The notes: a model not told the origin generated them from the sequence alone. A DNA stretch of 34,695 nucleotides from Armatimonadia bacterium (GCA_039683575.1 JBDKRC010000250.1:1-34695), one strand, 5' to 3'. Shown: positions 4,135 through 31,323, numbered from the stretch's first letter. Translations and numbers: made by a program.

Positions 4135-4211
4135 ATGTCCTCTCAAAGCGGAAAACCAATCAGGAGGCCGCAGAGCCTCTAGCGTGCTGTCGCGGTGACA
4201 TCCATAGGGTG

Positions 4212-4265
4212 CCAGTAGGGCAGGCGGCTCGCCTGCCCACGCGGGCGAGCCGTCCGCGCTACTGG
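4212..4265. repeat. inverted GTAG REP doublet (REPIN-like)
   Basis: CCAGTAGGGCAGGCGGCTCGCCTGC (4212-4236) and its imperfect reverse complement GCGGGCGAGCCGTCCGCGCTACTGG (4241-4265), in an intergenic gap. Confidence 0.65.
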
Positions 4266-4294
4266 ACTTGCCTAGCCAATTGCGGGACACTACA

Positions 4295-9052: not shown

Positions 9053-9679
9053 TCAGACTATACCATACCCGAAGTTCCTGCGAAAGGCCTGTTCCACTAC
9101 CGGAAGCACGTCACTGACTGTAGCTCCAGGTACATAATCCACGATGCGGCCCATATCTTCCGCGGTCAGCCCGCAGGGCGAGATCATCGAGAAGCCGCTC
9201 ATATCGCAATCCACGTTCAGGGCCAGCCCGTGGTAGGTGACCCAACCGCGGACAGCCACTCCGATGGAGCAGACTTTCCTCTCCCCTATCCAGACGCCTG
9301 TAAAGCCCTCGATATTCCGTGCTTCGAGGCGGAATTCAGCAAGAGCGGTGATTACCACCTGCTCGAGCGACCGCAGGTACCAGTGCAGATCGCGTCGGTG
9401 GTCGCGCAGGTCGAGGATCGGGTAGGCGACGAGTTGGCCTGGACCGTGATAGGTTGCCTGCCCGCCACGAGGGGTTTCAACTACTGGAAGCTGATTGTGG
9501 CCATGTACCGCGCGCTCCTGGCTCGTCCGGCCGAGGGTCACGACGGGATCATGCTCAAGGAGCAGGAGCGTGTCACTGATCTCGCCCGCACGGCGGCGGG
9601 CGACGAGGTCCTCCTGCAGGCATGCGGTGGCTTCGTAGTCGCAGCGGCCGAGACGGCGAACGTCAAGAAGGCGTGTCAC
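9053..9679 (-). CDS. lipB: lipoyl(octanoyl) transferase LipB
   Basis: LLLLEHDPVVTLG, RGGQATYHGPGQLVAYPILDL, KVCSIGV, HGLALN and PCG motifs. GTGA overlap with the upstream GT. Confidence 0.95.
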   Translation of the reverse strand: MTRLLDVRRLGRCDYEATACLQEDLVARRRAGEISDTLLLLEHDPVVTLGRTSQERAVHGHNQLPVVETPRGGQATYHGPGQLVAYPILDLRDHRRDLHWYLRSLEQVVITALAEFRLEARNIEGFTGVWIGERKVCSIGVAVRGWVTYHGLALNVDCDMSGFSMISPCGLTAEDMGRIVDYVPGATVSDVLPVVEQAFRRNFGYGIV

Positions 9680-14967: not shown

Positions 14968-16152
14968 TTACCGCCCGCCGTCATCAGACATGATGTCGCG
15001 GTAGAGGTGCACCATGGTCGGGGTGAGGGTCTCCTGGCTGAAGTCCTCGGCGCGTCGCAGACCTCCCTGCCGGAGGCTTTCGGCCAGTTCCGGGCCTTCC
15101 AGGACACGCAGGACTGCCTTGGCGAGGGCGGAGGGGTCGAGAGGGGGCACCAGAAGACCGCTCTCACCGTCCTCGAGGATCTCGGCGGGCCCAGCCTGAT
15201 TGATAGCGACCACGGGCGTCCCCACAGCAAGCGCCTCAAGCACCACGCGCCCGAAGGGCTCTTTCTCCGCCGGATGGGCCAGTACATCCAGCGCCGCCAG
15301 CGCCGAGGCGGGCTCGGCGGTATGCGCGACCCAGGCTACAGCCTGCCGCAAACCCAGATCGTCCACCAGGCGGCGCAGCTCAGCGGCATACTCGCGATTC
15401 TCCCTGAAGGCGTCGTCGCCGATGAGCACGAGACGCGCTTCAGGAAGGGCCTGTAGTATCGCCGGCATCGCCCGCAGCAGCACGTCCTGCCGCTTCCACG
15501 GCACCACCTGGCCCATATACCCGATCAGAGGCGCATCCGCCGGTATCCCCCACTCGCGCCGCAGACTGTGGCGGGAGCGCGTCGCGGCGGTATCGCGGGA
15601 CGTTAGCCCGTTGTGTATCACCTGAACCGGGGCGCCGTGCGGGGCCTCAGCAGCCACGTAGTCAGCCACGGCACGGGAGATTGCGACGACGGCAGCCGCC
15701 TTCCGACGCACGAGTCTCATGAGCCGGCGGGGCAGTCTCAGGTCGCGGACGTGCCAGATGACCGGCACTCCGGTGCATCTCACGGCCGCCCAGGCCGCAA
15801 CGGGGCCGTTGGCATGCACGAGGTCCGGCCGAAGGAGCTCGCAGACACTACCCAGGGATCGGCAGAAGACGAGGAAATGGTGGAATTGCCGCCAGAGCAG
15901 CAGCGGGTTGAGGGTCCGCCGCAGGCGGCATTCCGGCAGCGGATAGCCCGGGATGCCCAGTTCGTCCGCGGCTGCTATCATTGCGCCATCGGGGGCGGCC
16001 ACATCCGCTTGGACCTGCGCAGGGTCCAGGCTTTCGAGCAGACGCAGAAGGCTTTTGCCCGCCCCCCCGAGCACACCGGTCTCAGACACATATAATACGC
16101 GAAGGGGGCGCGCAGGAGGTGGTAAGTGCTCGGGGCCGTCTTGTTCGCTCAT
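14968..16152 (-). CDS. glycosyltransferase family 4
   Basis: GGAGKSL, PDLVHAN, WHVRD, PWKRQ and EPFGRVVLEALA motifs. Start placed at ATG 16152, which gives an ATGA overlap with the upstream stop. Confidence 0.9.
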   Translation of the reverse strand: MSEQDGPEHLPPPARPLRVLYVSETGVLGGAGKSLLRLLESLDPAQVQADVAAPDGAMIAAADELGIPGYPLPECRLRRTLNPLLLWRQFHHFLVFCRSLGSVCELLRPDLVHANGPVAAWAAVRCTGVPVIWHVRDLRLPRRLMRLVRRKAAAVVAISRAVADYVAAEAPHGAPVQVIHNGLTSRDTAATRSRHSLRREWGIPADAPLIGYMGQVVPWKRQDVLLRAMPAILQALPEARLVLIGDDAFRENREYAAELRRLVDDLGLRQAVAWVAHTAEPASALAALDVLAHPAEKEPFGRVVLEALAVGTPVVAINQAGPAEILEDGESGLLVPPLDPSALAKAVLRVLEGPELAESLRQGGLRRAEDFSQETLTPTMVHLYRDIMSDDGGR

Positions 16153-16988
16153 CTGGCCTGACTCCGCAGCCACAGCAGGCTCTGGTCGATCACTTCATTC
16201 TCCCACGCAAGGGAGTAGAAAGCGTGGTTCGCTCCGGCGACGAGGTGCTGGTTGAAGCTGCGTCCGGCCCGGCGGCAGAGCGCTTCGTAGTGCGCCAAAG
16301 AGCCGGGGGTGGTTGGATCGTTGCCGCCATAGATGAACAGCCTCTCGCCCTGGAAGCTCATGAACCGCTCGAACCAGTCGATCTCGGCGTCGCTGGCTGC
16401 GCCCTCTTCCCCGGCGCCCTTGCCGCCGCCGCTGATGACCCGGCGTATCTGGTCGAACTGCAGACCGCGCCCGAAGAGCTTCTGCCAGGTCTCACGCCGG
16501 AAGGCTTTCCGAGCATATTGCTGCAGGATCTGCTGCTTCTTCGCGCGGTCGGTCTGGGCACGGTCGCCGGCGACGATCGGGGCAGACCAGAGCACCATCG
16601 CCTGGATTGCCGCTTCCAGCGGGCCAGTGCCTAACGCCACTTCGCTGCCCGAGCAGTCACCAATCAGAGCAGCGTGTGATAGCCCCGTCTCCTGCAGTGC
16701 GAAGCGCGTGGCATTCACGGCGTCTGCGATCATGGTGGTCAAAGTGGCGGCGCGGGTATCACCTTCGGAGTCGCCGCGGCCGCGGAAATCAAAGCGCAGG
16801 CTGCAGAAGCCCTGCTCCTCGGCGCGGCGGGCCATCTTGGTGAACATCTGGTGGGGGCCGATGCGGTATCCGGCCCAGCCGTGCAGATACACCAGCGCCA
16901 GCGGCAGGCGCTGAACGTCGTTCGACGGGGTGTGCAGGACCCCAAGGAGGCGATAACCGTCACTATCGAAATAACAATGCTGTTCCAT
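16149..16988 (-). CDS. alpha/beta hydrolase-fold protein, exosortase-system hydrolase 1-like (Cys nucleophile)
   Basis: YRIGPHQMF, LRFDFRGRGDSEG, elbow G-D-C-S-G, GGND and GANH motifs. Start placed at MEQH (16988). Confidence 0.8.
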   Translation of the reverse strand: MEQHCYFDSDGYRLLGVLHTPSNDVQRLPLALVYLHGWAGYRIGPHQMFTKMARRAEEQGFCSLRFDFRGRGDSEGDTRAATLTTMIADAVNATRFALQETGLSHAALIGDCSGSEVALGTGPLEAAIQAMVLWSAPIVAGDRAQTDRAKKQQILQQYARKAFRRETWQKLFGRGLQFDQIRRVISGGGKGAGEEGAASDAEIDWFERFMSFQGERLFIYGGNDPTTPGSLAHYEALCRRAGRSFNQHLVAGANHAFYSLAWENEVIDQSLLWLRSQAR

Positions 16989-17050
16989 GTTGCCTAGTCG
17001 AAGTACCTTATGTCCATTTGGGGTGATTCCGACCCTACGCGGTAAGGGCG

Positions 17051-17881
17051 TTAGATGTGATCCGGCATCCACGAGGCCTGCTGTTCGGCCAGCCAGATCT
17101 CCGTCACTTCAACCACTGGTCGCGCCTCGATCAGGCCGATACGGTTCCAGAACGGCTCCTGCCGGACCGCGGCGACGCGGCCATTGAGCAGGTCGGCTAA
17201 CTCCCGATACGGCTCGCCGGGTTGCTCACGGGAGCCGATATTGACCACGAGGGCAGGGCCGCTCCACTGGGGCTTGTGTCCCAGCAGGTCGATGGCCTCG
17301 ATCTGGTTGCGCATCTCTGCGGAGATCAAATACCCGTCGAAATCATACACGTCCTGCTGACGCGATTGCCGCACCTCGGCGGCGTCGAACTTCTCCTGGT
17401 CGGTCAGCATGGACTTGATGAGCGAACGGCGTAGGTTCTGGGTCAGGTACTGCTTGCCGTTGATGACCGGCTCCCACAGCGCCAGGAAGTCTATGTCGCC
17501 ACTGGCTTCCGCCGCTGCCAGGGCCAGCGAGCCGCCCAGCCGCAGGCCCAGCAGACCAAGAGTGCTAACGCCCATGACCTGTCGCAAGTGCTGGGCAGCA
17601 GCGAGGATGTCCTCGATCCAAAGCTCTGGCGTGGCCTCGGCGAACTCGCCGGGGCTATCGCCGGTACCGCGGTAGTCAAACCGCATGCACCCAATATCGG
17701 CTTCGCAAAAGGCCCGCGCGGCCTCCACCATGATGCGGTGGGCGCACTTCTTCTCCTCAGCGAAGGGATCGCAGAACAGCATCCCCCACTTTGGGTGTGA
17801 ACCCTCCAGGCAGCCATGCACAATGGCGTGCAGCGGGACGGGGCCGGGGATCACAGCCACGGACTCTTGCGTCCGGACCAT
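17051..17881 (-). CDS. alpha/beta hydrolase-fold protein, exosortase-system hydrolase 2-like (Arg at nucleophile position)
   Basis: PFAEEK, RFDYRGTGDSPGEF, elbow G-L-R-L-G-G, LWEPV.NG and C-terminal EPFW. Confidence 0.82.
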   Translation of the reverse strand: MVRTQESVAVIPGPVPLHAIVHGCLEGSHPKWGMLFCDPFAEEKKCAHRIMVEAARAFCEADIGCMRFDYRGTGDSPGEFAEATPELWIEDILAAAQHLRQVMGVSTLGLLGLRLGGSLALAAAEASGDIDFLALWEPVINGKQYLTQNLRRSLIKSMLTDQEKFDAAEVRQSRQQDVYDFDGYLISAEMRNQIEAIDLLGHKPQWSGPALVVNIGSREQPGEPYRELADLLNGRVAAVRQEPFWNRIGLIEARPVVEVTEIWLAEQQASWMPDHI

Positions 17882-17886
17882 TGTGG

Positions 17887-18144
17887 CTAACCTCGCTTTT
17901 CGGCGACGTACGCGGCGATACTATCGACAGTCGAGAAGGTCTCCGTATTGAAGTCGGCGTCTTCGAGTGAGATGCCGAAGTCTTCTTCCAGGCCCACCAC
18001 GATCTCAAACAGGTTCACCGAATCGATACCATAGCTGTCCATGAGGTTGGCATCATCGACTATGTCGGCGGGCTCGACATTGAGGAACAGCCTTTCCACG
18101 ATCATGTCCTTGATCTGCTGCTTCAGTTCAGCATCCACTGCCAT
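17887..18144 (-). CDS. acyl carrier protein
   Basis: 85 aa, acidic, YGIDSV phosphopantetheine Ser motif, LEEDFGI. AGGAGG RBS. Confidence 0.92.
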   Translation of the reverse strand: MAVDAELKQQIKDMIVERLFLNVEPADIVDDANLMDSYGIDSVNLFEIVVGLEEDFGISLEDADFNTETFSTVDSIAAYVAEKRG

Positions 18145-18180
18145 GGCAACCTCCTGTGTAATGCCCGAAGCGTGCGCCTA

Positions 18181-20400: not shown

Positions 20401-20414
20401 CGGTGGACCTCAGG

Positions 20415-21296
20415 TTAGGCAGGAATCATCGGCGGCACGCCTGTCCGTTCCAGCGGCCGCGTCTCCAGCGGCTCCCACTGACATTCACTGTCGGGCGGTC
20501 CGTCCTCCGCCTCAAACATCCCCTGCCACCGCTTCTTGAACAGCGCCCAGTTCTTCATGGTGACATACTTGAACTTCACATCGGGTGAGCCATCGGTTGT
20601 CACGTTCTCGAAGTGGTACAACTCCACCGAAGGTTCGTAGAGCACCCGCCAGCCCGCTTCACGCGCCCGGTAGCACAGGTCAAAGTCCTCGAACTGCGCC
20701 GGGTTGAACGCTTCATCGAGGTTCCCCACCTGCTCGACAACCTCACGCCGCATCAGCCAGCAGGCGCTGATGAGGCACTGTACTTCAGCCTGCAGGTTGT
20801 ACTCCGGAGTGTCAATCGCCCTGCCCCGACCACGGTACTGCACACGTCCCGTCGGCGAGATCGCCACGCCCGCGCATTCGATGTTGTAGGGCTCAAACGG
20901 GTAGACCAGCTTCGGCCCGACGATGCCGACGCCAATGTCATCAAGAAGCACCTGCCGCAGCCCCGCCAGCCACCCCTTGTGGCGCACTGCCACATCATTG
21001 TCCATGAAGCCTATGAAGTCGCCAGTGGCGACCTCCAGGCCCTGATTGCGGGCAGTACACGCCCCCACATTGCCCTCATTGCGGATCAGCTCAAACTCCA
21101 CCCCGCGCCCCCGCGCCTCGGTCTGCAGGGCCTCCAGCATCTCGACGCTACCGTCGGTCGAGCCATTGTCTACCACCACAATCTGATCCGGCGGCGGCTG
21201 GCAGTCAAGCTGACCCCGCAGGCATAGCTCCGTATACGGGCGCTTGTTGTAGCTGACGACGATCAGGGTTGTGCGCAGGCTGGTCTCACTGTTCAA
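20415..21296 (-). CDS. glycosyltransferase family 2
   Basis: IVVVDNGSTDGS, ARNQG, FMDND, ACWLMRR and FEDFDLCYR motifs. Start is TTG 21296 (GAGG RBS) or GTG 21311. Confidence 0.9.
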   Translation of the reverse strand: MNSETSLRTTLIVVSYNKRPYTELCLRGQLDCQPPPDQIVVVDNGSTDGSVEMLEALQTEARGRGVEFELIRNEGNVGACTARNQGLEVATGDFIGFMDNDVAVRHKGWLAGLRQVLLDDIGVGIVGPKLVYPFEPYNIECAGVAISPTGRVQYRGRGRAIDTPEYNLQAEVQCLISACWLMRREVVEQVGNLDEAFNPAQFEDFDLCYRAREAGWRVLYEPSVELYHFENVTTDGSPDVKFKYVTMKNWALFKKRWQGMFEAEDGPPDSECQWEPLETRPLERTGVPPMIPA

Positions 21297-23943
21297 CGCG
21301 AATAACCTCACACCGCTGGGGCTCCAGCGGCACTGTCACTACGAAATTGGCCCCATCAACGGCTACCGCCGGTTGCGACGGACGAACAAGCGCCGTCACC
21401 TTGACGCCCTCACCAAGCTTCAGGGCCTTACCATCCAGTGTCACCTTTGCGTTAACCGGCGCCTTGCTGTCGTTGAAGACCGCAAAGAGGATCGTCTTGC
21501 CCTCGCCGGGACCATAGCGCTCCACCCGGACCTCTGCCGGCCCTGCCGTCGCGTACGTCACAGGCTGCCATCCGGCCGCGAACATCTCCCGCAGGACCGG
21601 GATGAACTGCTTGTACAGCGGCCGGGCGCGCTCGTATAGCGCGGGGTCTTTGAAGAAGTGGACAATCTGCCACTTGCCGTCTACGAAGACGTCGCCGTTG
21701 AAGAAGCTCGGAAAGATACCATATAGCGCGCTACGGTGGAAGTAATCTTCCATGTACGTGGGTGGCAGCTTGGCGAACTGTGTGTTGAGCAGTGGCGAGT
21801 AGGGCTTGTTGCGCAGCAGCGTCCGCGCCATCGCCATCGCCTCATGTGACAGGATCGTGCCAGTCTCCTGGCCCGTCGTGTCCAGGAGGGCCGGGAAGAA
21901 CGGCCACAGCGCCCCGCCATTGCCATGCATGGCCCCGCCGCGCGCGTGGACGTCCTGGGCGATCCAGTTGGTATACTGCCAGGTCGAGAACATCTGCAGG
22001 AGGACAGGCTGGCGGGTCTCGGGGTCGAAGGTCAGCGGGACTTCGACAGTCTTCCAGTGCTCCCGCCGCCAGTTGCGCACCTCGCCCCAGTTGGGCATCG
22101 AGTCGATGTAGATGCCGTCGAGTCGCGGCCCTGTCGCGGGCATGATGTTCTTGTCCGCCCAGGCTTTGCTGTAGCCCTGATGGCCCTTGTTCACGGGGCA
22201 CTCGGGCGTCTCTGGGATGTTCGGGTCGGGGTTGAGGGTGAAGACCGCGCCATCGCACCACGACTGGTTCTGCAGCGAGACGTCGTACCTGCCCTGCTGG
22301 TTGAAGACGCCGGAGCAGAGAGTAGCCGAGGCGCTTCTCTTCTGCGCCTCGTTACCCTTTTCAATCGCATCCCGCAGCGCCTGGAGCGCCCCGTCATACG
22401 TCCGGGGACAGCTCTTGGCCATCGCCAGCCAATACGTCATAGGCTCGATGTAGCGGAAAGCCGTGATGCCGTTGTCGTTGTCAAACTGCAGCGGCGTGGC
22501 GCTGATTTCGTCATACGCAAAGCCGAAGTCCTGCCAGTCCTTGACCTTGCTGATGTCAGCGAAGGCCATCCAGATGCCGCCCTTCTTCAGGCGCTGGGCG
22601 AAGAACTGCGGGTGGCGGCTGTGGTACTTCTCGGTCGCCGCCCGGAAGCCCCATTGCGGGTCGTGGGCATAGATTGAGAAGCGGAAGTCGGCCTGCGAGG
22701 GGAAGTTGAGGGTATCTTTGACCAGACCGAGGTTGACTGCGATGTACAGGGCCTTGAGCGTGCTGTTGTAGGTCAGCCGGAAGACACGTGGGCAATCCAT
22801 CGGCACCGAGAGCGACAGGCCGACGTTGCCCGCCGTCAGCGAGCACATCGGGTAAGCCGACGCGATACCGGAGATGGGCCAGCCCGAGGCGTTGAGATAC
22901 TCACCCTCGGCCGTAGTAGCCGTCGAGTGCAGCATGTCGTTGTGCCACACCCACGGCAGGTCTGCCAGCGGCAGGACGAAGTAGGCCGTCACGGCCCGGT
23001 CCTTGCCGGTCAGGTCCTTCACCGTCGCGTGTACATCAATGCCGTCGCCGGTGGCTTCCCAGCGCGACTCCAGGGACAGGCCCGCCGCGGCATCCTTGCC
23101 TGCCAGCGTCGCCCCTTTGCCGTCCTTGCTTACTGTGTAGTCCGGGCGCAGCCACGGCCCCTCTGCCCCCACGTCCCGGACCCACATTCCACCGGGCCCC
23201 TGCCCCAGCACCGGCTTGCCGGCCACGGCCAGCCCTGCCGGGCGGCCCTGTGCGTCCAATTCAAGCTTGAGACCATCCTGCGTCTGCAGCGCGGTCTGCG
23301 GCTTGCCGGCTTTGCCGCCGCCCGTGGTCGTCACCGGCGTCCGGTCAAATACCGCCGCCCCACCTGTCTGCAGTTCCTGCAGGGAGATGTCATCAAACCA
23401 TACCTTACCGCTGAAGCCCCGCCGGAAAAGCAGACTGATAGTGGCGCTGCGCACCGGCTTGCTCACGATGAATGAGTACTCACTGTGTTGCCAGTCGTGA
23501 GTGCCGACCTCGAAAGTGGCTTTCTGGCCATACAGCGGCGTGCCGTCAACGTACTGCAGGTCCACCCAGACCGAGTATTCGGAACCGCGCGTGCCCTCGA
23601 CACCCTCGGCTTTGCTCCAGCCGCCCACCACCAGCGGTTGCGCCTTGGTCTGGTTGAGCGTCACTGTCTGGCTGATCCAGAACTGCGTCCCCGCCTCGGG
23701 CTTGACGAAACGCAGGCTGGCTTTCCCGCTGTGTGCTACCTGCTCATCCACTGCCCAGTCCGGCGATAGCTGGCTTTCCCAGCCCACCGGCTTGCCGCCC
23801 TGAAGCTGCTCAAAGCCCGGGTTTGCGACCAGGTTTGGGCCTCGCGCTGCCTCGACCTTGAGGGGCCTCAGCACCTCTGCCGCCTGCAGCGGCACTGTTG
23901 AGATAACGACCATGGCAATTGCCAACAGCCAGAAGTCTCGCAC
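21286..23943 (-). CDS. secreted protein: N-terminal CBM4/9-like domain plus putative glycoside hydrolase-like catalytic domain
   Basis: Signal peptide, NLVANPGFE...VWFDDISL CBM-like module, and a later DGIYIDS motif typical of TIM-barrel glycosidases. GGGAGG RBS. Confidence 0.7.
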   Translation of the reverse strand: MRDFWLLAIAMVVISTVPLQAAEVLRPLKVEAARGPNLVANPGFEQLQGGKPVGWESQLSPDWAVDEQVAHSGKASLRFVKPEAGTQFWISQTVTLNQTKAQPLVVGGWSKAEGVEGTRGSEYSVWVDLQYVDGTPLYGQKATFEVGTHDWQHSEYSFIVSKPVRSATISLLFRRGFSGKVWFDDISLQELQTGGAAVFDRTPVTTTGGGKAGKPQTALQTQDGLKLELDAQGRPAGLAVAGKPVLGQGPGGMWVRDVGAEGPWLRPDYTVSKDGKGATLAGKDAAAGLSLESRWEATGDGIDVHATVKDLTGKDRAVTAYFVLPLADLPWVWHNDMLHSTATTAEGEYLNASGWPISGIASAYPMCSLTAGNVGLSLSVPMDCPRVFRLTYNSTLKALYIAVNLGLVKDTLNFPSQADFRFSIYAHDPQWGFRAATEKYHSRHPQFFAQRLKKGGIWMAFADISKVKDWQDFGFAYDEISATPLQFDNDNGITAFRYIEPMTYWLAMAKSCPRTYDGALQALRDAIEKGNEAQKRSASATLCSGVFNQQGRYDVSLQNQSWCDGAVFTLNPDPNIPETPECPVNKGHQGYSKAWADKNIMPATGPRLDGIYIDSMPNWGEVRNWRREHWKTVEVPLTFDPETRQPVLLQMFSTWQYTNWIAQDVHARGGAMHGNGGALWPFFPALLDTTGQETGTILSHEAMAMARTLLRNKPYSPLLNTQFAKLPPTYMEDYFHRSALYGIFPSFFNGDVFVDGKWQIVHFFKDPALYERARPLYKQFIPVLREMFAAGWQPVTYATAGPAEVRVERYGPGEGKTILFAVFNDSKAPVNAKVTLDGKALKLGEGVKVTALVRPSQPAVAVDGANFVVTVPLEPQRCEVIRVEQ

Positions 23944-23973
23944 GAGGCACCTCCCGCTCAGGCGGGTTTGTTG

Positions 23974-24951
23974 TCAGTATGCAACCACATCAGCAATGGC
24001 AGTGGCGATACTCTTGAAATCAGGGATTGCGGCGCGTTCCAGCGTGCGACTCGACGGCACGGGCGTATCCAGGGCCGCTACACGCTTCGGCGGTGCTTGC
24101 AGGTAATCGAAGCACTCCTCGGTCACCCGCGCCACGATCTCCGCGCCAACCCCGCCGGTCAGTGTCCCCTCCTCCACCACGACCACGCGGCCGGTCTTCT
24201 CCAGCGACGACTTGACCGCCTCAGCATCGAGCGGCGCCAGCGTCCGCAGGTCCAGAACCTCGGTAGCGACGCCGTGCTCGGAGAGAGCCTCCGCGGCCTT
24301 CAGCGCTTCCTCCACCATGCGGCCATAGGCCAGCACGGTCACGTCCTCGCCCTCCAGCGCTACCCGCGCCTGCCCTAGCGGTACCGTATAGTCACCCTCC
24401 GGCACTTCGCCACGGTGACCATAGAGAATCTTGCTTTCGAGGAAGATGACCGGATCATCCCACCGAATGGCGCTCTTCAGCAGCCCCTTGGCATCCTCGG
24501 CGGTGGAGGGACAGACAACCACAAGCCCCGGTGTAGCGACGAAGAAGCGCTCCAGACTCTGGGAGTGCGTCGGGCCATACCCTCTCCCCGCGCCGTAGGG
24601 GCAGCGCACGACCAGCGGCACGTGGCACTGCTCGCCAAACTGGTAGTGGAACTTCGCCGCATGGTTCACAAGCTGGTCCACGGCGAGGGTGATGAAGTCC
24701 ATGAACATGATCTCGGCGACGGGCCGCAGGCCGGTCATGGCCGCACCCACGGCCACGCCCACGAAGCCACCCTCGGCAATCGGGGTGTTCAGCACCCGCT
24801 CGCAGCCGAAGCGGTCAACGATGCCCTCGGTCAGCTTGAACGCGCCACCGTAGCCCGCGATGTCCTCCCCCAGGAGTATCACCGCCGGGTCGCGCTCCAT
24901 CTCTTCCTCGAGCGCCGCTCGAATTGCGTGTGAGAAGAATAGTTCTGGCAT
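23974..24951 (-). CDS. 2-oxoacid/acetoin dehydrogenase E1 beta subunit (PdhB/AcoB-like)
   Basis: GEDI..YGGAF, NTPIAE, GLRPVAEIMFMDF, THSQ, DAKGLL and DLRTLAPLD motifs. Confidence 0.93.
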   Translation of the reverse strand: MPELFFSHAIRAALEEEMERDPAVILLGEDIAGYGGAFKLTEGIVDRFGCERVLNTPIAEGGFVGVAVGAAMTGLRPVAEIMFMDFITLAVDQLVNHAAKFHYQFGEQCHVPLVVRCPYGAGRGYGPTHSQSLERFFVATPGLVVVCPSTAEDAKGLLKSAIRWDDPVIFLESKILYGHRGEVPEGDYTVPLGQARVALEGEDVTVLAYGRMVEEALKAAEALSEHGVATEVLDLRTLAPLDAEAVKSSLEKTGRVVVVEEGTLTGGVGAEIVARVTEECFDYLQAPPKRVAALDTPVPSSRTLERAAIPDFKSIATAIADVVAY

Positions 24952-24968
24952 TTCGTGTGGTGCGGGTC

Positions 24969-25829
24969 CTATATGGGCGGCATCTCCGCCATGTCCGGAA
25001 TTGCCGGCGCGCTGGTCTCCATCTCCGCCATCGGCGGAATTCCGGCGGAGGTCTGCGAGGCCTCGGCCATAGGCGGCAGCATGCTCTGCTCACGGTTGAT
25101 CAGCATGGGCAGCAGCCTGTCCCCCGCCGTCCGCTGCTCTTCCTGTGCCGAAGGCGGTGCCGCAACCGGGGCAGCGCCCGGCGGCCGCACTTCCTGCGCA
25201 CGACGTTCCTGGGACTGGGTCGAGTCGCTCCGCCGCGCCCGCACCTCCTGTTCGGTCTCGACCGCGGCGGGCATCTCAAGCCGCACACGAGGCGCGCCGG
25301 TCCCTGGTTTGGCTTGGGGCGAAACGGGGGCCACCGGCGAAGGAGACGATGGCGGCTCTTCAGACGGCGTCGTACCACCAGTTCGCCCCCGGAGCTCGAC
25401 CTCGGTCTCGACCGGGGCGGGCATCTCAAGCCGGACGCGCGGCGCGCCGGTTCCAGGCTTGGCTCGAGGCCGCACCACGGGCGTTCCCGGGAGAGGGGGC
25501 GGCGGCGTCGGAGCTTGCTGCTGAGCCATTCCGGCCCGTTTCTCTATCTGAGCGAGGGAGTCACGGGCGGCGGCGCGCAGGTCCTCATTCGGACTGGTCA
25601 TAAACGGCATCAGTTCGCCAGCGGCTTCTGGACCACCGATCTGCCCCAGTTCCTTGATCGCAATCCATTGCACCGGCTCGTCACCGCTCTTGAGCATCCG
25701 CAGCAATGACTGCTGGCGTCTTTGGGACAAAGGCAGTGAGGGCGACATCTGCCCCTCTGCGGCAGCTTTTATCTCACCCGCCACGAATTTCAGAAGATCG
25801 CCGATTCCTGGTTCAAGGTCCTTGGGCAT
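24969..25829 (-). CDS. hypothetical protein: HEAT-like repeat N-terminus plus Pro-rich disordered tail with repeated motifs
   Basis: VQWIAIKELGQIGGPEAAGELMPFMTSPNEDLRAAARDSLAQI is HEAT-like. The duplicated 21-aa motif differs mostly at synonymous sites, which supports this frame. GGAGG RBS upstream of ATG 25829. Confidence 0.75.
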   Translation of the reverse strand: MPKDLEPGIGDLLKFVAGEIKAAAEGQMSPSLPLSQRRQQSLLRMLKSGDEPVQWIAIKELGQIGGPEAAGELMPFMTSPNEDLRAAARDSLAQIEKRAGMAQQQAPTPPPPLPGTPVVRPRAKPGTGAPRVRLEMPAPVETEVELRGRTGGTTPSEEPPSSPSPVAPVSPQAKPGTGAPRVRLEMPAAVETEQEVRARRSDSTQSQERRAQEVRPPGAAPVAAPPSAQEEQRTAGDRLLPMLINREQSMLPPMAEASQTSAGIPPMAEMETSAPAIPDMAEMPPI

Positions 25830-25856
25830 GCCTGACACTACCTCCGGAATCGAGCT

Positions 25857-26834
25857 CTATACCTGGCCCAGTCCCGCCGTCGCGAAGACGCCCCGCGCCA
25901 CGCCTCCGGCGTCGGGCTCAGGGCTCTGCCGCGCGAACTCAACGGCTTGAGCGACCTCCTCCTCAACCTGCTCCCGCGCCGCAGCTAGTTGCTCCTGCGT
26001 AGTCCCAGCCTCCAGCAGTCTCTCCGCCATCACCCCGAGCGGATCGCGGGCCAGCCACCGCTCCAACTCGCCCTCAGGACGGTACTCGCACTTGTCACTC
26101 TTCGAGTGCCCGCAGTGACGGTAGGTCCGGGCCTCGACGATGGTGGGCCCATTCCCCTCCCGCGCCCGCTGGACCGCCTGCTGGGTCGCCTCGCGCACCG
26201 CAAAGTAGTCGTTGCCGTCCACCGTCACACCGGGGATGCCGTAGGCCTCAGCCCGTCGCGAGAGTCCTTCGATCTTGAAGGTCTGAGCCACCGGCGTGCT
26301 CATCGCGTAGGCGTTGTTCTCGATGAGATACACAATCGGCAGGTCCCAGATGGCGCCCATGTTCACGCCTTCGTGGAAATACCCGTTCCCGCAGGCGCCG
26401 TCTCCAAAGAAACAGAGCACCGCCTTGCCGGTGCGCTGCAGCTTCTGGGTCAGCGCCGCGCCAGTCGCCACCGGGATCATGCCTGCGGTAATGCCGTTGG
26501 ACCCCAGGAATCCAATCCCGAAGTCCGCCATGTGCTGCGAGCCGCCCCGCCCGGCAGAGTACCCGGTCGCCTTGCCGAACAGCTCGGCCATGATCCGGCC
26601 CGTGTCCCCGCCTTTGGCCAGAAAGTGCCCGTGGCCGCGGTGGTTGGAGGTGACAAGGTCACCCGGCCCCAGCGCCGCAATTCCGCCCACCGCACACGCC
26701 TCCTGCCCCACACAAAAGTGCGAGGTGCCGCCGATCAGCCCCTCGCTAAAGATATTAGCCAGCACTTCCTCAAATCGCCTGATCAGCACCATCAGGCGGT
26801 AGTGTTCGAGCAATTCGTCGGGGGAATAGGTCAC
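25857..26834 (-). CDS. TPP-dependent 2-oxoacid/acetoin dehydrogenase E1 alpha subunit (PdhA/AcoA-like)
   Basis: GQEA, SNHRGHGH, GRGGSQH, TPP motif GDGA...ENN and TYR..GHS. Start at GTG 26834 (GTGA overlap with the KS stop). Confidence 0.93.
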   Translation of the reverse strand: MTYSPDELLEHYRLMVLIRRFEEVLANIFSEGLIGGTSHFCVGQEACAVGGIAALGPGDLVTSNHRGHGHFLAKGGDTGRIMAELFGKATGYSAGRGGSQHMADFGIGFLGSNGITAGMIPVATGAALTQKLQRTGKAVLCFFGDGACGNGYFHEGVNMGAIWDLPIVYLIENNAYAMSTPVAQTFKIEGLSRRAEAYGIPGVTVDGNDYFAVREATQQAVQRAREGNGPTIVEARTYRHCGHSKSDKCEYRPEGELERWLARDPLGVMAERLLEAGTTQEQLAAAREQVEEEVAQAVEFARQSPEPDAGGVARGVFATAGLGQV

Positions 26835-29059
26835 GGAAGTCTCCGCAATGATATGGAGGCACCCAGCCGCGTAGCGCGGGCGTCTCGCCCGCCTGCGCCG
26901 GTCACCATGAGGTTCTGGCCCCCGCTCGTCAGCAGCTTCGCCGCTAGTTCCAGCGCCATACTCGCCGCAAAGGTGTGGCCCCAAGCCGGGGTCTCAGTCG
27001 TCGCGGCCGCCTCCCCCTTCCGCAGCGTCACGTCAAGCACCTGCGCGAGAGCGGTGGCCCCGCGGCGCGCAGCGTGCTCGGCACTCTCCAGCACCAGCAG
27101 GCAGGCCCCCTCGCCGGGCACGTAATCAGGCTGCGCCTGCGCCAGATACCGCAGCAACGGCTCACTGAGAGCCTCCACGCCCCCGGCTAACACCACTTCG
27201 GCGCGGCCGTCGGCGATGATCCGCCAGGCGTAGTCAAGCGCGCTGGCCGCGGAGACGTCGCCGACACAGAAAGTGGAGGTCGGCCCCTGCAGGTCGTACT
27301 CCACCGCAGCGAGACTGGTCGGGGTGTTGGCAAAGGAGTGGGTGAAGATCACAGGCGAACCAAAGCGAACGCCCTTGGACTGCACCCGCGCGGTCATGTT
27401 GGCCATGGAGTCGAGACAACCAAACGCCGTCCCCAAGCACAGCCCCACCCGCTCGTGCTCAAGCTCCCGCCAGTCGAGCCCCGCGTCATCCCACGCCAGC
27501 GCACAGGCTGCCAAGGCGAGTTCGGAGCAGCGGTCCAGGTAGGTCTTCTCGCTCTCCAGGTAGTCTTCCACGACGAAATCGAGGCACTCAGCCAGCAGCG
27601 GCAGACCATGGCCAGTCAACCGCTCGGGCGCGCGCCGGCCCTCACGGCCTTCGGCCAGCCCCTGTGCAAAGTCGTCGCGACCGATCCCAATCGCCGAGAT
27701 AGGCGCGACACCTGTCACCACTACGTCATGCTTCAACACATATGGACCGGGAACAGCGCAAGTTACCGCGGTCGGCGCTTTGGGTGGAGCCTCGGAAGCA
27801 GTCTCAGGTGGCGGCCCAAATACCACACACGCGTTGCTCCCCCCTACCCCTGCCGAGATCGTGGCCGCGTAACGCACTGTGGCTTCACGCGCCTCGTTCG
27901 GCACATAGTCCAGATCGCACTCCGGGTCTTTCTCACGGTAGTTGACCGTAGGCGGCACCACACCCGTCTCGATGGTCTTCACGCACGCCAGGGCCTCCAC
28001 CGCCCCCGCTGCACCCATCAGGTGCGCGATGGCACCCTTGATTGAACACACCGGGATCTCGTAGGCGTGGCCGCCCAGCACACTCTTGAGGGCCTCGGTC
28101 TCCGCTACGTCGTGCGGCTTGGTGCCGGTCCCGTGGGCATTTATGTGGTCAAGCTTCGCCGAATCAAGCTGCGCGTCGTTCAGCGCCCCGCCAAGCACCC
28201 GCGCCATCCCTGCGCCGCCCTTGTCGGGGGCAGTGAGGTGATAGGCATTGTTGTTTTGCCAGGAGCCGAGCACTTCGGCGTAGATCTCGGCCCCGCGCGC
28301 CCGGGCGCTGTCGAGGGACTCCAGCACCAGCAGCGCGGCGCCTTCCCCAAACATCGTCCCGCTGCGGTCGGCGGAGAAGGGCCGGATGTCCTCCGCCGTG
28401 ATGGTGTGCAGTACCGAGAGCCCGGAAAGCGGCGAGGGGGAGAGCACGTCATGTCCGCCGGCGAGCATCGCCTCGGCCTTGCCGGCGCGGATGAGATCGA
28501 AGGCATACCCGACCGCCGCCGCGCCTGAGGCGCAGGCAATTGAGAGCAGACTCAGGGGGCCGGTGAGGTCAAAGGCGTGGGCAAGGCAGTCGAGGGCGGT
28601 GTGAAAAGCGAAATCATCGAAGTCCGACGGGCTACCGTCACGGCAGAAGTCTTCCCAGGCCAGCCCGCCCCCAAAGTTCGTGGAGAGCACGGCCCCAACA
28701 GGAAAATGGGGACTGACACCATTTTCCCCCTCACCGCGTTCGGAGGCCACCAGAGCCACGCTGGAAAATGGTGTCTGTCCCCGTTTTCCGCCACGCAGCC
28801 CTGCATCCCCCAACGCCTCTCCCGCCGCATGCAGCAGGAACTGCACCGCCAGATCGGGGGCCTTCCGCAGGCCGTAGGCGCTCGGATCGAACGTCCAGTC
28901 GTTGATCTCCCCGCCGTTTTCGTTGCGCAGGCCGGTCGGATCGAGGCGGCTGAGGCGCTTCATCCCGCGCTCTCCGGCGCACAGCCGCTGCCAGAATATC
29001 GGCACACCCAGCCCTAACGGCGTCACAGCCCCAAGCCCCGTCACCACTACACGATTCAT
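26831..29059 (-). CDS. fabF: beta-ketoacyl-ACP synthase II-like domain fused to a second, degenerate KS (chain-length-factor-like) domain
   Basis: Domain 1: NRVVVTGLG, ACASG (Cys), NAHGTGT (His), SIKGAIAHLMGAAG (His). Pro/Ala linker. Domain 2: DVVVTGVAPISAIG...GEGACLLVLES, with VGDVS in place of ACASG and a truncated C-terminus. Confidence 0.88.
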   Translation of the reverse strand: MNRVVVTGLGAVTPLGLGVPIFWQRLCAGERGMKRLSRLDPTGLRNENGGEINDWTFDPSAYGLRKAPDLAVQFLLHAAGEALGDAGLRGGKRGQTPFSSVALVASERGEGENGVSPHFPVGAVLSTNFGGGLAWEDFCRDGSPSDFDDFAFHTALDCLAHAFDLTGPLSLLSIACASGAAAVGYAFDLIRAGKAEAMLAGGHDVLSPSPLSGLSVLHTITAEDIRPFSADRSGTMFGEGAALLVLESLDSARARGAEIYAEVLGSWQNNNAYHLTAPDKGGAGMARVLGGALNDAQLDSAKLDHINAHGTGTKPHDVAETEALKSVLGGHAYEIPVCSIKGAIAHLMGAAGAVEALACVKTIETGVVPPTVNYREKDPECDLDYVPNEAREATVRYAATISAGVGGSNACVVFGPPPETASEAPPKAPTAVTCAVPGPYVLKHDVVVTGVAPISAIGIGRDDFAQGLAEGREGRRAPERLTGHGLPLLAECLDFVVEDYLESEKTYLDRCSELALAACALAWDDAGLDWRELEHERVGLCLGTAFGCLDSMANMTARVQSKGVRFGSPVIFTHSFANTPTSLAAVEYDLQGPTSTFCVGDVSAASALDYAWRIIADGRAEVVLAGGVEALSEPLLRYLAQAQPDYVPGEGACLLVLESAEHAARRGATALAQVLDVTLRKGEAAATTETPAWGHTFAASMALELAAKLLTSGGQNLMVTGAGGRDARATRLGASISLRRLP
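28701..28789. repeat. inverted doublet of 27-bp palindromes inserted in-frame in the ketosynthase gene
   Basis: GGAAAATGGGGACTGACACCATTTTCC (28701-28727) and GGAAAATGGTGTCTGTCCCCGTTTTCC (28763-28789) are reverse complements with 2 mismatches. Confidence 0.8.
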
Positions 29060-29082
29060 GGTATGTTCCTATCCCCCATTCC

Positions 29083-29829
29083 CTACATCCGCAATCCGCC
29101 GTCAACGCTGAAGACCTGCCCCGTAACATATGAGGCTCGGTCTGAGCACAGAAACGCCACCAACCCCGCGACCTCGTCCGGCTCACCGAAGCGCTGCATC
29201 GGAATCATCCCCAGCAGCGCCTCACGGCGTGTGTCGGGCATGTCTTTGGTCATGTCGGTCGCGATAATCCCGGGGGCCACCGCGTTCACGCACACCTTCT
29301 GCAGCGCCAGTTCACGGGCGAGGGCCTTCGTCAACCCCACCACACCCGCCTTAGCCGCCGCATAGTTCGCCCGCTGCAGGTCGCCCATGAGCCCCGCGTC
29401 AGACGAGATGTTCACGATTCTCCCCCACTTGGCCTTGAGCATCTGCCGCACCGCAGCCTTGCAGCAGAGGAACGTACCCTTCAGGCATGTATCAACGACT
29501 TCCTCAAAAGCATCCTGGTTCATGAACGCCAGATACTGGTCCCGTAGCAACCCCGCGTTGTTGACGAGTATCTCCAGCCCGCCCAACTCACCGGCAGTGC
29601 GGGCCACCATCTCCTTCACCGCAGCCTCGTCCCGCACGTCCGCCTGTACCGCGATAGCCTTGCGGCCCAGCGCTGCAATCTCGGCGGCGACAGCGTCAGC
29701 GGCTTCGGCGCTCGTGTTGTAGTTCACCGCCACATCGGCCCCGCACCGTGCCAATTCCAGCGCGATTGCCCTGCCAAGGCCCTTGCCCGCGCCGGTGACC
29801 AACGCCCGCCGACCGCTGAGATCAATCAT
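29083..29829 (-). CDS. fabG: 3-oxoacyl-ACP reductase (FabG-like SDR)
   Basis: [26 protein letters not shown] (YxxxK), VNAVAPG and VDGG motifs. Confidence 0.92.
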
Positions 29830-29835
29830 GGCGCC

Positions 29836-30324
29836 TCACTTCTGCTCCAGGTACTTGCGGACATCCGCCTCATCCACCTGTTGCGCCTCCCCGAGCCACC
29901 CGGCAACCGCTTCGAGCGTCACGCCGGCTTCCCGTGCCACCCGGCGCGCTGCCGGCGTTGCCCGCACTCGCTTGCCCAGCTTCGCCGCCAACTGTGCCTT
30001 GAGATCGTCATCCGCCCGCGAGGCCGCCTGATGCTCGGCCAGAAGCCGCGCATTCTCCGCCTCCACTCCCTCCGGCACCGCTTCTCCCATTTGCGCCACA
30101 AAGGCCAACACGTATCCTACCGGTATGACGCTCTTCTCGGGCGCATAAATCCGCAGAAGCGTCCCCCGGCACTCCATCTCATACTCAAAGGTGGCTTTGT
30201 CGGTGATGATCTCGCATAGCGACTCACCCACCTCGAGCATGTCGCCTTCCTGCTTGAGCCAGCGGTTGAGCGTGACTTCATCGAGATTCTCGGCCCACTT
30301 CTCAACCTTGAGCAAATGACCCAT
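29836..30324 (-). CDS. stand-alone lipoyl domain + peripheral subunit-binding domain protein (E2-like, no catalytic domain)
   Basis: WLKQEGD...EIITDKAT lipoyl-Lys motif, then RVRATPAARRVAREAGV PSBD motif. Stops at 162 aa. Confidence 0.88.
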   Translation of the reverse strand: MGHLLKVEKWAENLDEVTLNRWLKQEGDMLEVGESLCEIITDKATFEYEMECRGTLLRIYAPEKSVIPVGYVLAFVAQMGEAVPEGVEAENARLLAEHQAASRADDDLKAQLAAKLGKRVRATPAARRVAREAGVTLEAVAGWLGEAQQVDEADVRKYLEQK

Positions 30325-30362
30325 GTTATACCCTTTGACAGCAGCTTCTTGATCTTCAGCCG

Positions 30363-30391
30363 AGTATACACAGCCCCCGAGACAGCGTCAA
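30363..30391 (-). promoter_or_regulatory. sigma70 promoter for the long minus-strand operon
   Basis: Minus strand TTGACG - 17 nt - TATACT with an extended -10 TG, about 40 nt upstream of ATG 30324. Confidence 0.8.
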
Positions 30392-30426
30392 CGCGGGGAG
30401 GTCTGCGCGGGACCGGGCACGAACCC

Positions 30427-30537
30427 TCGGGCTGTAGGGCGGGGGCTCGTACCCCGCCGGCCGTTATCTATGACCACACCCGAGCGGCGGGGTACGAGCC
30501 CCCTGCGACGCAGACGTCGCTCCGCCCTACAGCCCGA
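30427..30537. repeat. GTAG REP doublet (REPIN-like) with a 20-nt hairpin insert in one arm
   Basis: Left arm TCGGGCTGTAGGGCGGGGGCTCGTACCCCGCCG. The right arm is its reverse complement interrupted by CTGCGACGCAGACGTCGCTC. Confidence 0.8.
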
Positions 30538-30567
30538 ACCAGAGCCCCACCCCAGAGGAGCCACACC

Positions 30568-31323
30568 TTGCGACCCATCATCGCCATCATCGCCAATATG
30601 TTGCGCCACGACGGTGGAGAGTTCTCTCTTCGTGATGTTGTCAGCCACCAGTTCGGGGACCTCATCGCCTCCGCCGGAGCCGCCCCGGTCATCATCCCCT
30701 GCACCGAAGACGTCGAGGCCGTCGAGACCGTGCTTGAACGCGCTGACGGCCTCCTGGTCAGCGGAGGCCCCGATGTCTCGCCGGATGTGTACGGACAGGG
30801 CCCCTGCGCCCATCTCGGCGGCGTAGAGCCCCTGCGTGATGCCGTGGATGACATCGCCCTGCGCTATGCCTATGCCCATGACATGCCCATGCTGGGTATC
30901 TGCCGCGGCATTCAGAGCATGGCCGTCTACGCAGGCGGTACACTCATCCAGGACATCCCCTCGCAGGTCCCCAACGCGCTGCAGCACGGGCAGAAGGCGC
31001 CGGGGTTCCATGGCATACACGAAATCACCATCGAACCGGAGTCGCTCCTGGCACGCGTCACCGGACGCAGCCGCGCCATGGTGAACAGCTTCCATCACCA
31101 GGCCGTGGACACCGTGCCCGAGGGCTGGGTGGCCAGCGCCCGCACCGCGGACGGCGTGATCGAAGCCATAGAAAAGCCCCAGAGCAAGTTCTGCCTGGGG
31201 CTACAGTTCCATCCTGAGCTGATGGCGGCCCGCCATCCCTTCGCGATGAGCATCTTCAGTTCATTTGTGGCGTCCGTAACTGGCAACTGCCCCTACGGCA
31301 GTCCGGCCTTGTACAACTCATAG
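30568..31323 (+). CDS. peptidase C26 / gamma-glutamyl-gamma-aminobutyrate hydrolase family (class I glutamine amidotransferase, PuuD-like)
   Basis: GLLVSGGPDV, LGICRGIQ, VNSFHHQAV, DGVIEAIE and GLQFHPE motifs. Start at TTG 30568 after GAGGAG. Confidence 0.92.
   Translation: MRPIIAIIANMLRHDGGEFSLRDVVSHQFGDLIASAGAAPVIIPCTEDVEAVETVLERADGLLVSGGPDVSPDVYGQGPCAHLGGVEPLRDAVDDIALRYAYAHDMPMLGICRGIQSMAVYAGGTLIQDIPSQVPNALQHGQKAPGFHGIHEITIEPESLLARVTGRSRAMVNSFHHQAVDTVPEGWVASARTADGVIEAIEKPQSKFCLGLQFHPELMAARHPFAMSIFSSFVASVTGNCPYGSPALYNS

Follow-up and report, generated by a model that had tools for sequence, protein, structure and literature searches.

A lipoyl carrier without an E2 core beside a ketosynthase pair in Armatimonadota: a candidate E1-lipoyl-ketosynthase module

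In a textbook 2-oxoacid dehydrogenase, the catalytic core of the E2 acyltransferase builds the complex and hands the acyl group over to CoA. Lipoyl arms that act non-covalently, or E2-like proteins without transferase activity, are known from GcvH, protein X and the actinobacterial OdhA, which borrows lipoyl domains. GcvH is without a subunit-binding domain and serves another set of partners, protein X keeps a non-catalytic core domain, and none of the three is known to be linked to a ketosynthase. Here, we analyzed a stretch of 34,695 nucleotides (nt) from an Armatimonadia bacterium (GCA_039683575.1, JBDKRC010000250.1:1-34695; hereafter the window), in which a protein of 162 amino acids (aa) consisting of a lipoyl domain and a peripheral subunit-binding domain (hereafter the carrier) is encoded next to a FabG-like reductase, a ketosynthase (KS) fused to a chain-length-factor (CLF)-like half, and both subunits of a pyruvate dehydrogenase (PDH)-type E1. 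In our estimate the chances are evenly balanced that these genes form a dedicated, core-less E1/lipoyl-carrier/KS-CLF/ketoreductase module that is conserved in Armatimonadota.

For the loading of a glycolyl unit onto an acyl carrier protein (ACP), the excerpted text of PMC6335953 describes the PDH/transketolase-like proteins QncN/QncL/QncM and SclQ1-4. As is proposed for the locus studied here, a biosynthetic line and not central metabolism is supplied by a thiamine-dependent E1-like enzyme together with a lipoyl arm and a carrier protein. According to that excerpt, however, the Qnc/Scl lipoyl domain is part of a fusion in which an acyltransferase catalytic domain carries out the transfer, whereas the Armatimonadota module has no such domain in the protein, at the locus or, in one family (f17), in the genome. 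The acceptor line also differs, being a nonribosomal peptide synthetase in Qnc/Scl and a KS/CLF pair here. Type II KS/CLF pairs (actinorhodin, 1tqy; Iga11/Iga12, 6kxd; 6smo) share with the present pair a KS with Cys-His-His and a KS-like partner without the Cys; the present partner differs in having Asp or Ser rather than Gln and in being truncated, and the pair is tied to a lipoyl carrier and an E1. A published KS-CLF catalogue lists pairs in Armatimonadetes, and its main text contains no occurrence of 'lipoyl' or 'pyruvate dehydrogenase' (PMC10132072). A full-text literature search returned no description of a core-less lipoyl carrier with a ketosynthase, although the present KS-CLF pairs may figure in the supplement of PMC10132072.

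Domain make-up of the carrier, the ketosynthase pair and the E1 genes

In the carrier (29836..30324, minus strand), Pfam recognizes only Biotin_lipoyl (PF00364, residues 17-74) and E3_binding (PF02817, residues 120-142). The subunit-binding domain reaches the C-terminus, and a Pfam profile search found the E2 catalytic domain PF00198 neither in the carrier nor in any other open reading frame (ORF) of the window. The modifiable Lys43 stands in the TDKA turn of the motif ITDKATFE (residues 39-46) and is invariant in the alignment of 48 carrier-family sequences, in which an invariant family signature, EKWAEN...T...W, precedes the lipoyl turn. Two f17 genomes (L098, L101) have this Lys in TEKV, not TDKA; in both of them, a BirA-like biotin/lipoate ligase is encoded two genes away from the carrier, which adjoins RecG and KaiC-like genes. 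The basic residues R121, R127, R128 and R131 of the binding domain are kept in the family alignment; such residues dock E1beta or E3 in complexes of the Gram-positive type.

On the solved E2p chain 3duf_I (428 aa), the E2 of a PDH with heterotetrameric E1, the profile of the carrier family covers positions 12-168 and ends where the core of that chain begins; over positions 116-165, it also matches binding domains that were solved in isolation (1w4g, 1w85_I and others), and protein X chains are among its matches. Like the PDH E2, the carrier has a lipoyl domain with the modified Lys at its N-terminus and, after a flexible linker, a subunit-binding domain; it differs in ending before the PF00198 core, in forming its own EKWAEN family and in coexisting with normal E2s in many genomes. 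The NCBIfam E2 models match the carrier over their N-terminal parts only. Among them, the 372-position AcoC model NF011457 is matched over positions 6-123. Beyond this part, AcoC consists of a transferase with the alpha/beta-hydrolase fold, so that an acyl acceptor other than PF00198 has a precedent. The two hydrolases of the window were, however, rejected as AcoC-like acceptors of the lipoyl-bound acyl group: they give no NF011457 match at E<=0.001 and lie outside the conserved module core. Judged by its domains, the carrier is predicted to be a lipoyl swinging-arm protein, i.e., an E2 without its core.

The carrier stop codon TGA is followed by 6 nt (ggcgcc) and the ATG of the FabG-like 3-oxoacyl reductase (248 aa; 29083..29829, minus strand). 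This protein scores 291.9 bits with TIGR01830, below the cut-off of 297.75, whereas the housekeeping FabG on contig C21 reaches 329.7 bits; by sequence, it is a short-chain dehydrogenase/reductase of the FabG kind.

The next gene encodes a 742-aa KS-CLF fusion (26831-29059, minus strand), the nearest solved chains to which are FabF and KS/CLF heterodimers; in many relatives, the KS and the CLF are separate genes. The KS half (27743..29059) matches PF00109 and PF02801, and its Cys176, His309 and His346 align with those of FabF. The CLF-like half (26831..27742) is a second, truncated PF00109 match, in which the alignment with FabF places Asp at the position of the active-site Cys (Ser in a relative), the region of the catalytic His is missing, and the Gln found in decarboxylating CLFs is absent. 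CLFs of the Gln type are held to make the primer by decarboxylation. With Asp or Ser and without the His region, the CLF-like half would therefore be unable to supply its own primer in this way. A separate housekeeping set of FabH and FabD-FabG-AcpP-FabF is encoded on contig C21, which rules out the KS-CLF as a replacement of FabH or the sole initiator of fatty acid synthesis. Given the residues of the CLF half and this separate full type II fatty acid synthase (FAS II), the KS is predicted to require a primer from outside. It should be noted that the KS coding region contains, in frame, an element of ~99 nt (28701-28799) made of two 27-nt palindromic units, which adds 27 residues (about 91-119) that are missing from the 90%-identical homologue P0123; copies of the units recur on no fewer than 15 further contigs.

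E1alpha (325 aa; 25857..26834, minus strand; PF00676, 1.5e-78) most likely starts at GTG 26834 and overlaps the KS-CLF stop codon as GTGA. E1beta (325 aa; 23974..24951, minus strand) has Transket_pyr and Transketolase_C domains and scores 377 bits with NF006667, above the cut-off of 321. Between the two lies a poorly conserved HEAT-repeat ORF of 289 aa (24969..25838, minus strand; HEAT_2, 32.2 bits), for which tblastn against 20 related loci gave no match, although the same-genus locus has a gap of similar size. E1alpha followed by E1beta is found in loci of families f1, f2, f4, f5 and f17.

A first-pass annotation, made from the sequence alone, had already described a 162-aa E2-like gene with a TDKA lipoyl domain and a subunit-binding domain only, the fabG gene 6 nt behind it, and the E1alpha overlap with the KS stop codon, all of which hold. 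What it had called a KS fusion does contain a KS with Cys-His-His, but the second half is corrected here to a truncated KS-like domain with Asp in place of Cys. The lipB gene that it placed in the same run is real (LipB octanoyltransferase, LplA-B_cat 1.1e-44; 9053..9679, minus strand), but stands ~14 kb downstream of the genes it had marked out; the ACP of the operon likewise falls outside them.

Conservation, co-occurrence and E1alpha phylogeny

Orthologues of the short carrier are present end to end in 27 of the 31 genomes of the order (of the others, two have pieces, one a weak match and one no match). The short form thus being kept across the order, a recent truncation, which would have spoken against the first-pass annotation, or a pseudogene is ruled out. 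Homologous loci are without a full-length E2. In the database, 240 proteins of 89-284 aa match the carrier at E<=0.001, and all 120 of them that were listed consist of lipoyl and/or E3-binding domains alone; the source names of close homologues point to Armatimonadota.

Among the 20 related loci, FabG follows the carrier in all 20, and the KS-CLF and E1alpha follow in 13. Of the seven genomes that lack this arrangement, the five examined all have the KS-CLF elsewhere, in four cases with E1alpha and E1beta alongside, two of these four also having the series GT2 glycosyltransferase, ACP, hydrolase (and hydrolase, GT4 glycosyltransferase). Outside the order, the carrier adjoins the KS-CLF in families f9, f10, f12 and f19, but not in f17, f23 and f25. 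A pattern scan of species genomes gave 56 loci of the Armatimonadota type, which overlap with the 20 related loci; FabG follows the carrier in 49 of the 51 scanned loci with at least 600 nt downstream, and the KS-CLF is seen in 32. The absence of PF00198, expected by the first-pass annotation at this and homologous loci, extends to all 20 related loci (no match at E<0.03) and to the flanks of all 56 Armatimonadota-type loci; the only scanned locus with a core is a 27%-identical Bacteroidales match in an ordinary E2-E3-E1 operon. In genus g4 and a relative (L058, L059), fabG is separated from the KS by genes for a PhoU-like protein and a PHO4 phosphate transporter, with the order of the module genes kept.

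We then compared the distribution of the genes over a phylum sample of 121 Armatimonadota genomes that are at least 85% complete. The short carrier, defined by a frame of <330 aa and E<=1.2e-18, is present in 35 genomes. One of these, G110, would be the sole carrier-positive, CLF-negative genome; it was rejected as such and dropped as a cut full-length E2, because its frame, next to an E1 fusion, is interrupted by the end of a 4409-nt contig, which leaves 34 genomes. The CLF orthologue, for which an identity of at least 37% was required and FabF-like frames of 418-598 aa matched only over their first 195-245 residues were excluded, is present in the identical 34 genomes. E1alpha with at least 53% identity occurs in 30 genomes, all among these 34 and none outside; the best identity in any carrier-negative genome is 51%. 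The carrier and the CLF are both missing from genus g12 within f4 (two genomes) and from G072 within f12.

Phylogeny points in the same direction. In a quick maximum-likelihood tree of 43 E1alpha rows (one duplicate row omitted), of the kind the first-pass annotation had proposed, the module E1alphas form a separate clade of 27 rows with a support of 95 in the Shimodaira-Hasegawa-like approximate likelihood ratio test (SH-aLRT). The clade includes all 17 KS-adjacent copies together with those of f10, f12, f17, f23 and f25, and excludes all six copies that stand beside full-length E2s, all six from carrier-negative genomes, and all four lineage paralogues, of which three belong to this genome and one to a relative.

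The remaining operon and its flanks

Between positions 30324 and 235, every gene is encoded on the minus strand, and neighbours overlap or are separated by 5-36 nt. The order is carrier, fabG, KS-CLF, E1alpha, HEAT, E1beta, an 885-aa ORF, a GT2 glycosyltransferase, a glycyl-radical enzyme and an ACP; then come two alpha/beta hydrolases, three GT4s, a MurJ-like flippase, a fourth GT4 and LipB. The last group comprises a Wzy-like protein together with three ORFs of 245, 656 and 1351 aa without confident Pfam match.

The 885-aa ORF (21286-23943, minus strand) has no assigned family and is missing at the same-genus locus, where E1beta adjoins GT2; partial homologues occur in L053 and L096. The GT2 gene (20415..21311, minus strand; Pfam) is the first of a GT2-ACP-hydrolase-hydrolase-GT4 block that stands after E1beta in several families, as the synteny in L049, L061, L084, L085, L121, L154 and L162 indicates. 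The glycyl-radical enzyme of the PFL2/dehydratase family (18181-20400, minus strand; TIGR01774, 504 bits, below cut-off) has no activating enzyme in the window; its gene is present in the same-genus locus and lacking in three other genomes whose loci otherwise match. The ACP (85 aa; 17887..18144, minus strand; PP-binding, 7.8e-12) keeps its place after GT2 in other families, with identities of 58-81%. It is present in this operon and in loci of f1, f2 and f4, and most other loci give no ACP match near the module. The two alpha/beta hydrolases (16149..17881, minus strand) resemble exosortase-A-associated hydrolases 2 and 1 (TIGR03101, 6e-36; TIGR03100, 4e-28; both below cut-off).

Near the end of the operon lie the 656-aa (4295-6265, minus strand) and the 1351-aa protein (235-4290, minus strand). 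Homologues of the former occur within ~6 kb of the KS-CLF in two f17 genomes, and homologues of the latter immediately adjoin the carrier gene in two genomes of f12 (loci of these homologues: L104, L108, L177, L179). Domains of the 3-keto-disaccharide-hydrolase-like kind (lectin fold) were indicated by an atlas for the two proteins and are taken as leads only.

Upstream of the carrier gene, the divergent intergenic region contains a nested palindrome of 111 nt (30427-30537) with outer arms of 16 nt and inner arms of 19 nt. It is a multi-copy repeat, having 363 blastn matches in the genome and a metagenome depth of 213, compared to ~5 alongside, and contigs join or break there. Contigs of two RNA libraries, X2 and X4 (one sample, one study), cover 25 and 20 of the 30 bins of 17000-31000 at a likeness of at least 95%, and pieces of them cross the fabG/KS and E1alpha/HEAT junctions. 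These contigs are not counted as evidence of transcription, because such libraries can contain DNA and the contigs show no transcript.

Possible acyl flow and alternative explanations

The domain make-up, the synteny, the co-occurrence, the separate E1alpha clade and the dispensable core of one family are observed; the course of the reaction, from the substrate and the route of the acyl group to its direct hand-over and the end product, is inferred as follows. The E1, docked via the subunit-binding domain, would decarboxylate a small, pyruvate-like 2-oxoacid and reductively acylate the lipoyl group on Lys43. The KS would take the acyl group as its primer, either from the lipoyl arm onto Cys176 or via a further transferase, and would condense it with malonyl-ACP; the FabG-like reductase would then yield a 3-hydroxyacyl thioester, and an E3 encoded elsewhere would re-oxidise the lipoyl arm. 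In the present genome, the product would probably pass via the ACP and the two hydrolases and end up in a glycan or glycolipid, for which the glycosyltransferases and the flippase encoded downstream would be responsible. In five families, the module is followed by genes of the series ACP-hydrolase-hydrolase-glycosyltransferase-flippase, which points to a 3-hydroxyacyl decoration or a glycolipid; this glycan end resembles the logic of rhamnolipid synthesis, in which a FabG-like reductase, an alpha/beta-hydrolase acyltransferase and glycosyltransferases act together.

Direct priming of the KS Cys or the ACP, on which the first-pass annotation had centred, is tentative, and transfer of the acyl-dihydrolipoyl thioester straight onto the KS Cys without CoA, an E2 core or an acyltransferase is in our view doubtful. 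The module is conserved and core-less, and its tie to the KS pair turned out stronger than that annotation could know; in this genome, a core is available in trans. Co-folding of the KS-CLF with the carrier, which had been proposed there for the lipoyl domain and KS, gave a median of 0.48 (runs 0.48, 0.17 and 0.73; best of three controls 0.00). The mark applied is reached by 116 of 157 solved complexes and by 2 of 215 mismatches; with a score of 0.60 or below, it is reached by only 18 of these 157 and by both mismatches that pass. Between runs, 1% or more of the contacts are shared, the partner has a predicted local distance difference test score (pLDDT) of at least 76, and custom alignments were used.

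Several points weigh against a dedicated, core-free module. The co-fold pass is weak, with no interface reported. Lipoyl domains and ACPs are unrelated folds, and the literature search gave no KS that takes an acyl group from a lipoyl arm. The genes are scattered in f17, f23 and f25, so that the synteny is not universal, and G040 has the carrier and the CLF but no E1alpha match at E<=1e-70. The cut-offs were set once the lists had been inspected, and genomes that are related do not count as independent; the co-occurrence, strong as it is, therefore reflects few independent events, and about two joint losses alone back the coupling of carrier and CLF. A separate E2 core, a possibility that the first-pass annotation had raised, is present: the six-frame search of this whole genome (assembly 96% complete) gave one PF00198 match, a free-standing, apparently active core of 237 aa on contig C43 (13638-14351; L013:7639-8352) with the catalytic motif DHRSVDG and without lipoyl or binding domain, among unrelated genes. 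In 29 of the 31 genomes of the order, a PF00198 match likewise lies in a frame of 329 aa or less, E2-length frames being also present in only five; in G020, the core forms the end of a 637-aa protein, the first ~390 residues of which match nothing. Apart from the carrier, no lipoyl-type domain was found in this genome (tblastn with the carrier returns only itself, and the remaining Biotin_lipoyl matches include two biotin carriers, one with EAMKL and the other next to a biotin carboxylase), and the carrier may serve that core in trans, making acyl-CoA. The carrier is perhaps not exclusive to the module either, since three further PDH-type E1 sets (34-47% identity to the window E1alpha) share the genome with one lipoyl carrier and one E3. 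These sets and the E3 lie on contigs C324, C171, C238 and C82, the E3 on C238; one set is a 761-aa alpha-beta fusion, and another has an E1alpha with an N-terminal extension of ~300 aa of unassigned kind. In favour of the module, the lipoylation machinery is present, with LipB encoded in the operon and the one LipA on C164. Several 2-oxoacid:ferredoxin oxidoreductase-like genes are also found in the genome.

E1alpha and E1beta are encoded in the window, the E3 on C238 and the core as a free-standing protein only. The carrier and the C43 core could act as an E2 split exactly at the linker between binding domain and core, with the fabG/KS-CLF neighbourhood being a co-regulated supply of acetyl-CoA. 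We regard this as rather unlikely for the module, because the two halves dissociate in both directions. All four f17 genomes (96-98% complete) and G094 (88%) have the carrier, the module-type E1alpha-E1beta, the KS-CLF and an E3-like gene, in f17 (not in G094) together with an E1 fusion, but no PF00198 match, and the free-standing core protein has no match in the f17 genomes at E<=1; in this one family, the core is dispensable for the module. Conversely, both genomes of g12 have a core in a 241-aa frame and no carrier match, their sole two Biotin_lipoyl matches resembling the two biotin carriers of the present genome. From this double dissociation, we argue that the carrier is not merely the detached half of a housekeeping E2. 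Moreover, at least 16 carrier-positive genomes of the phylum sample also hold E2 frames of 405-543 aa, and the carrier tracks the KS/CLF in 34 of 34 genomes. No module gene is a conserved neighbour of the free-standing core in any of 12 contexts, and such a neighbour tying core to module was rejected; in one context, an E1 fusion is encoded on the opposite strand at a distance of 1.1 kb. In this particular genome, the carrier may also serve the core.

The count of four E1 sets to one carrier and one E3 would also fit a shared housekeeping carrier that provides the lipoyl arm for all E1 sets, pyruvate- and branched-chain-oxoacid-dependent alike, next to a KS-CLF/FabG that offers an alternative initiation of fatty acid synthesis; genus g4 lends itself to this explanation, having a second E1alpha/E1beta pair just upstream of the carrier and a module flanked by unrelated housekeeping-type genes rather than glycan genes. 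However, the full FabH-containing FAS II set is separate, the KS-adjacent E1alphas form a distinct clade confined to carrier-positive genomes, and many of these genomes have ordinary full-length E2s, which makes a shared carrier improbable. It is highly improbable that the E1 is a sugar-branching enzyme, its role unrelated to the lipoyl protein. The operon is indeed rich in glycosyltransferases and has a MurJ-like flippase and a Wzy-like protein, and the PDH-like E1 pairs AviB1/AviB2 and Pau11/Pau12 are proposed, in the excerpted text of PMC4425429, to add two-carbon sugar branches in avilamycin and paulomycin. The module E1alpha nevertheless co-occurs with the lipoyl carrier and the KS/CLF, stands beside the KS in genomes without nearby glycan genes, and this explanation would leave the lipoyl arm, the binding domain and LipB without a role.

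For annotation, carriers of 160-180 aa should not be named 'pyruvate dehydrogenase E2', as is done in some sources. If the KS is primed straight from the lipoyl arm, the E1-carrier-KS-CLF-reductase module would be the first lipoyl-primed ketosynthase system, and in f17 lipoyl priming would be the only use of oxoacid-dehydrogenase parts; with five proteins, the module is small and open to enzymology. The swinging arm would then be re-usable as a stand-alone acyl shuttle, and fatty-acid- or polyketide-like chains could be primed from a 2-oxoacid, bypassing acyl-CoA. These results suggest that a carrier inherited together with its own E1 and ketosynthase pair may provide many Armatimonadota with a new feed route into fatty-acid-like synthesis.

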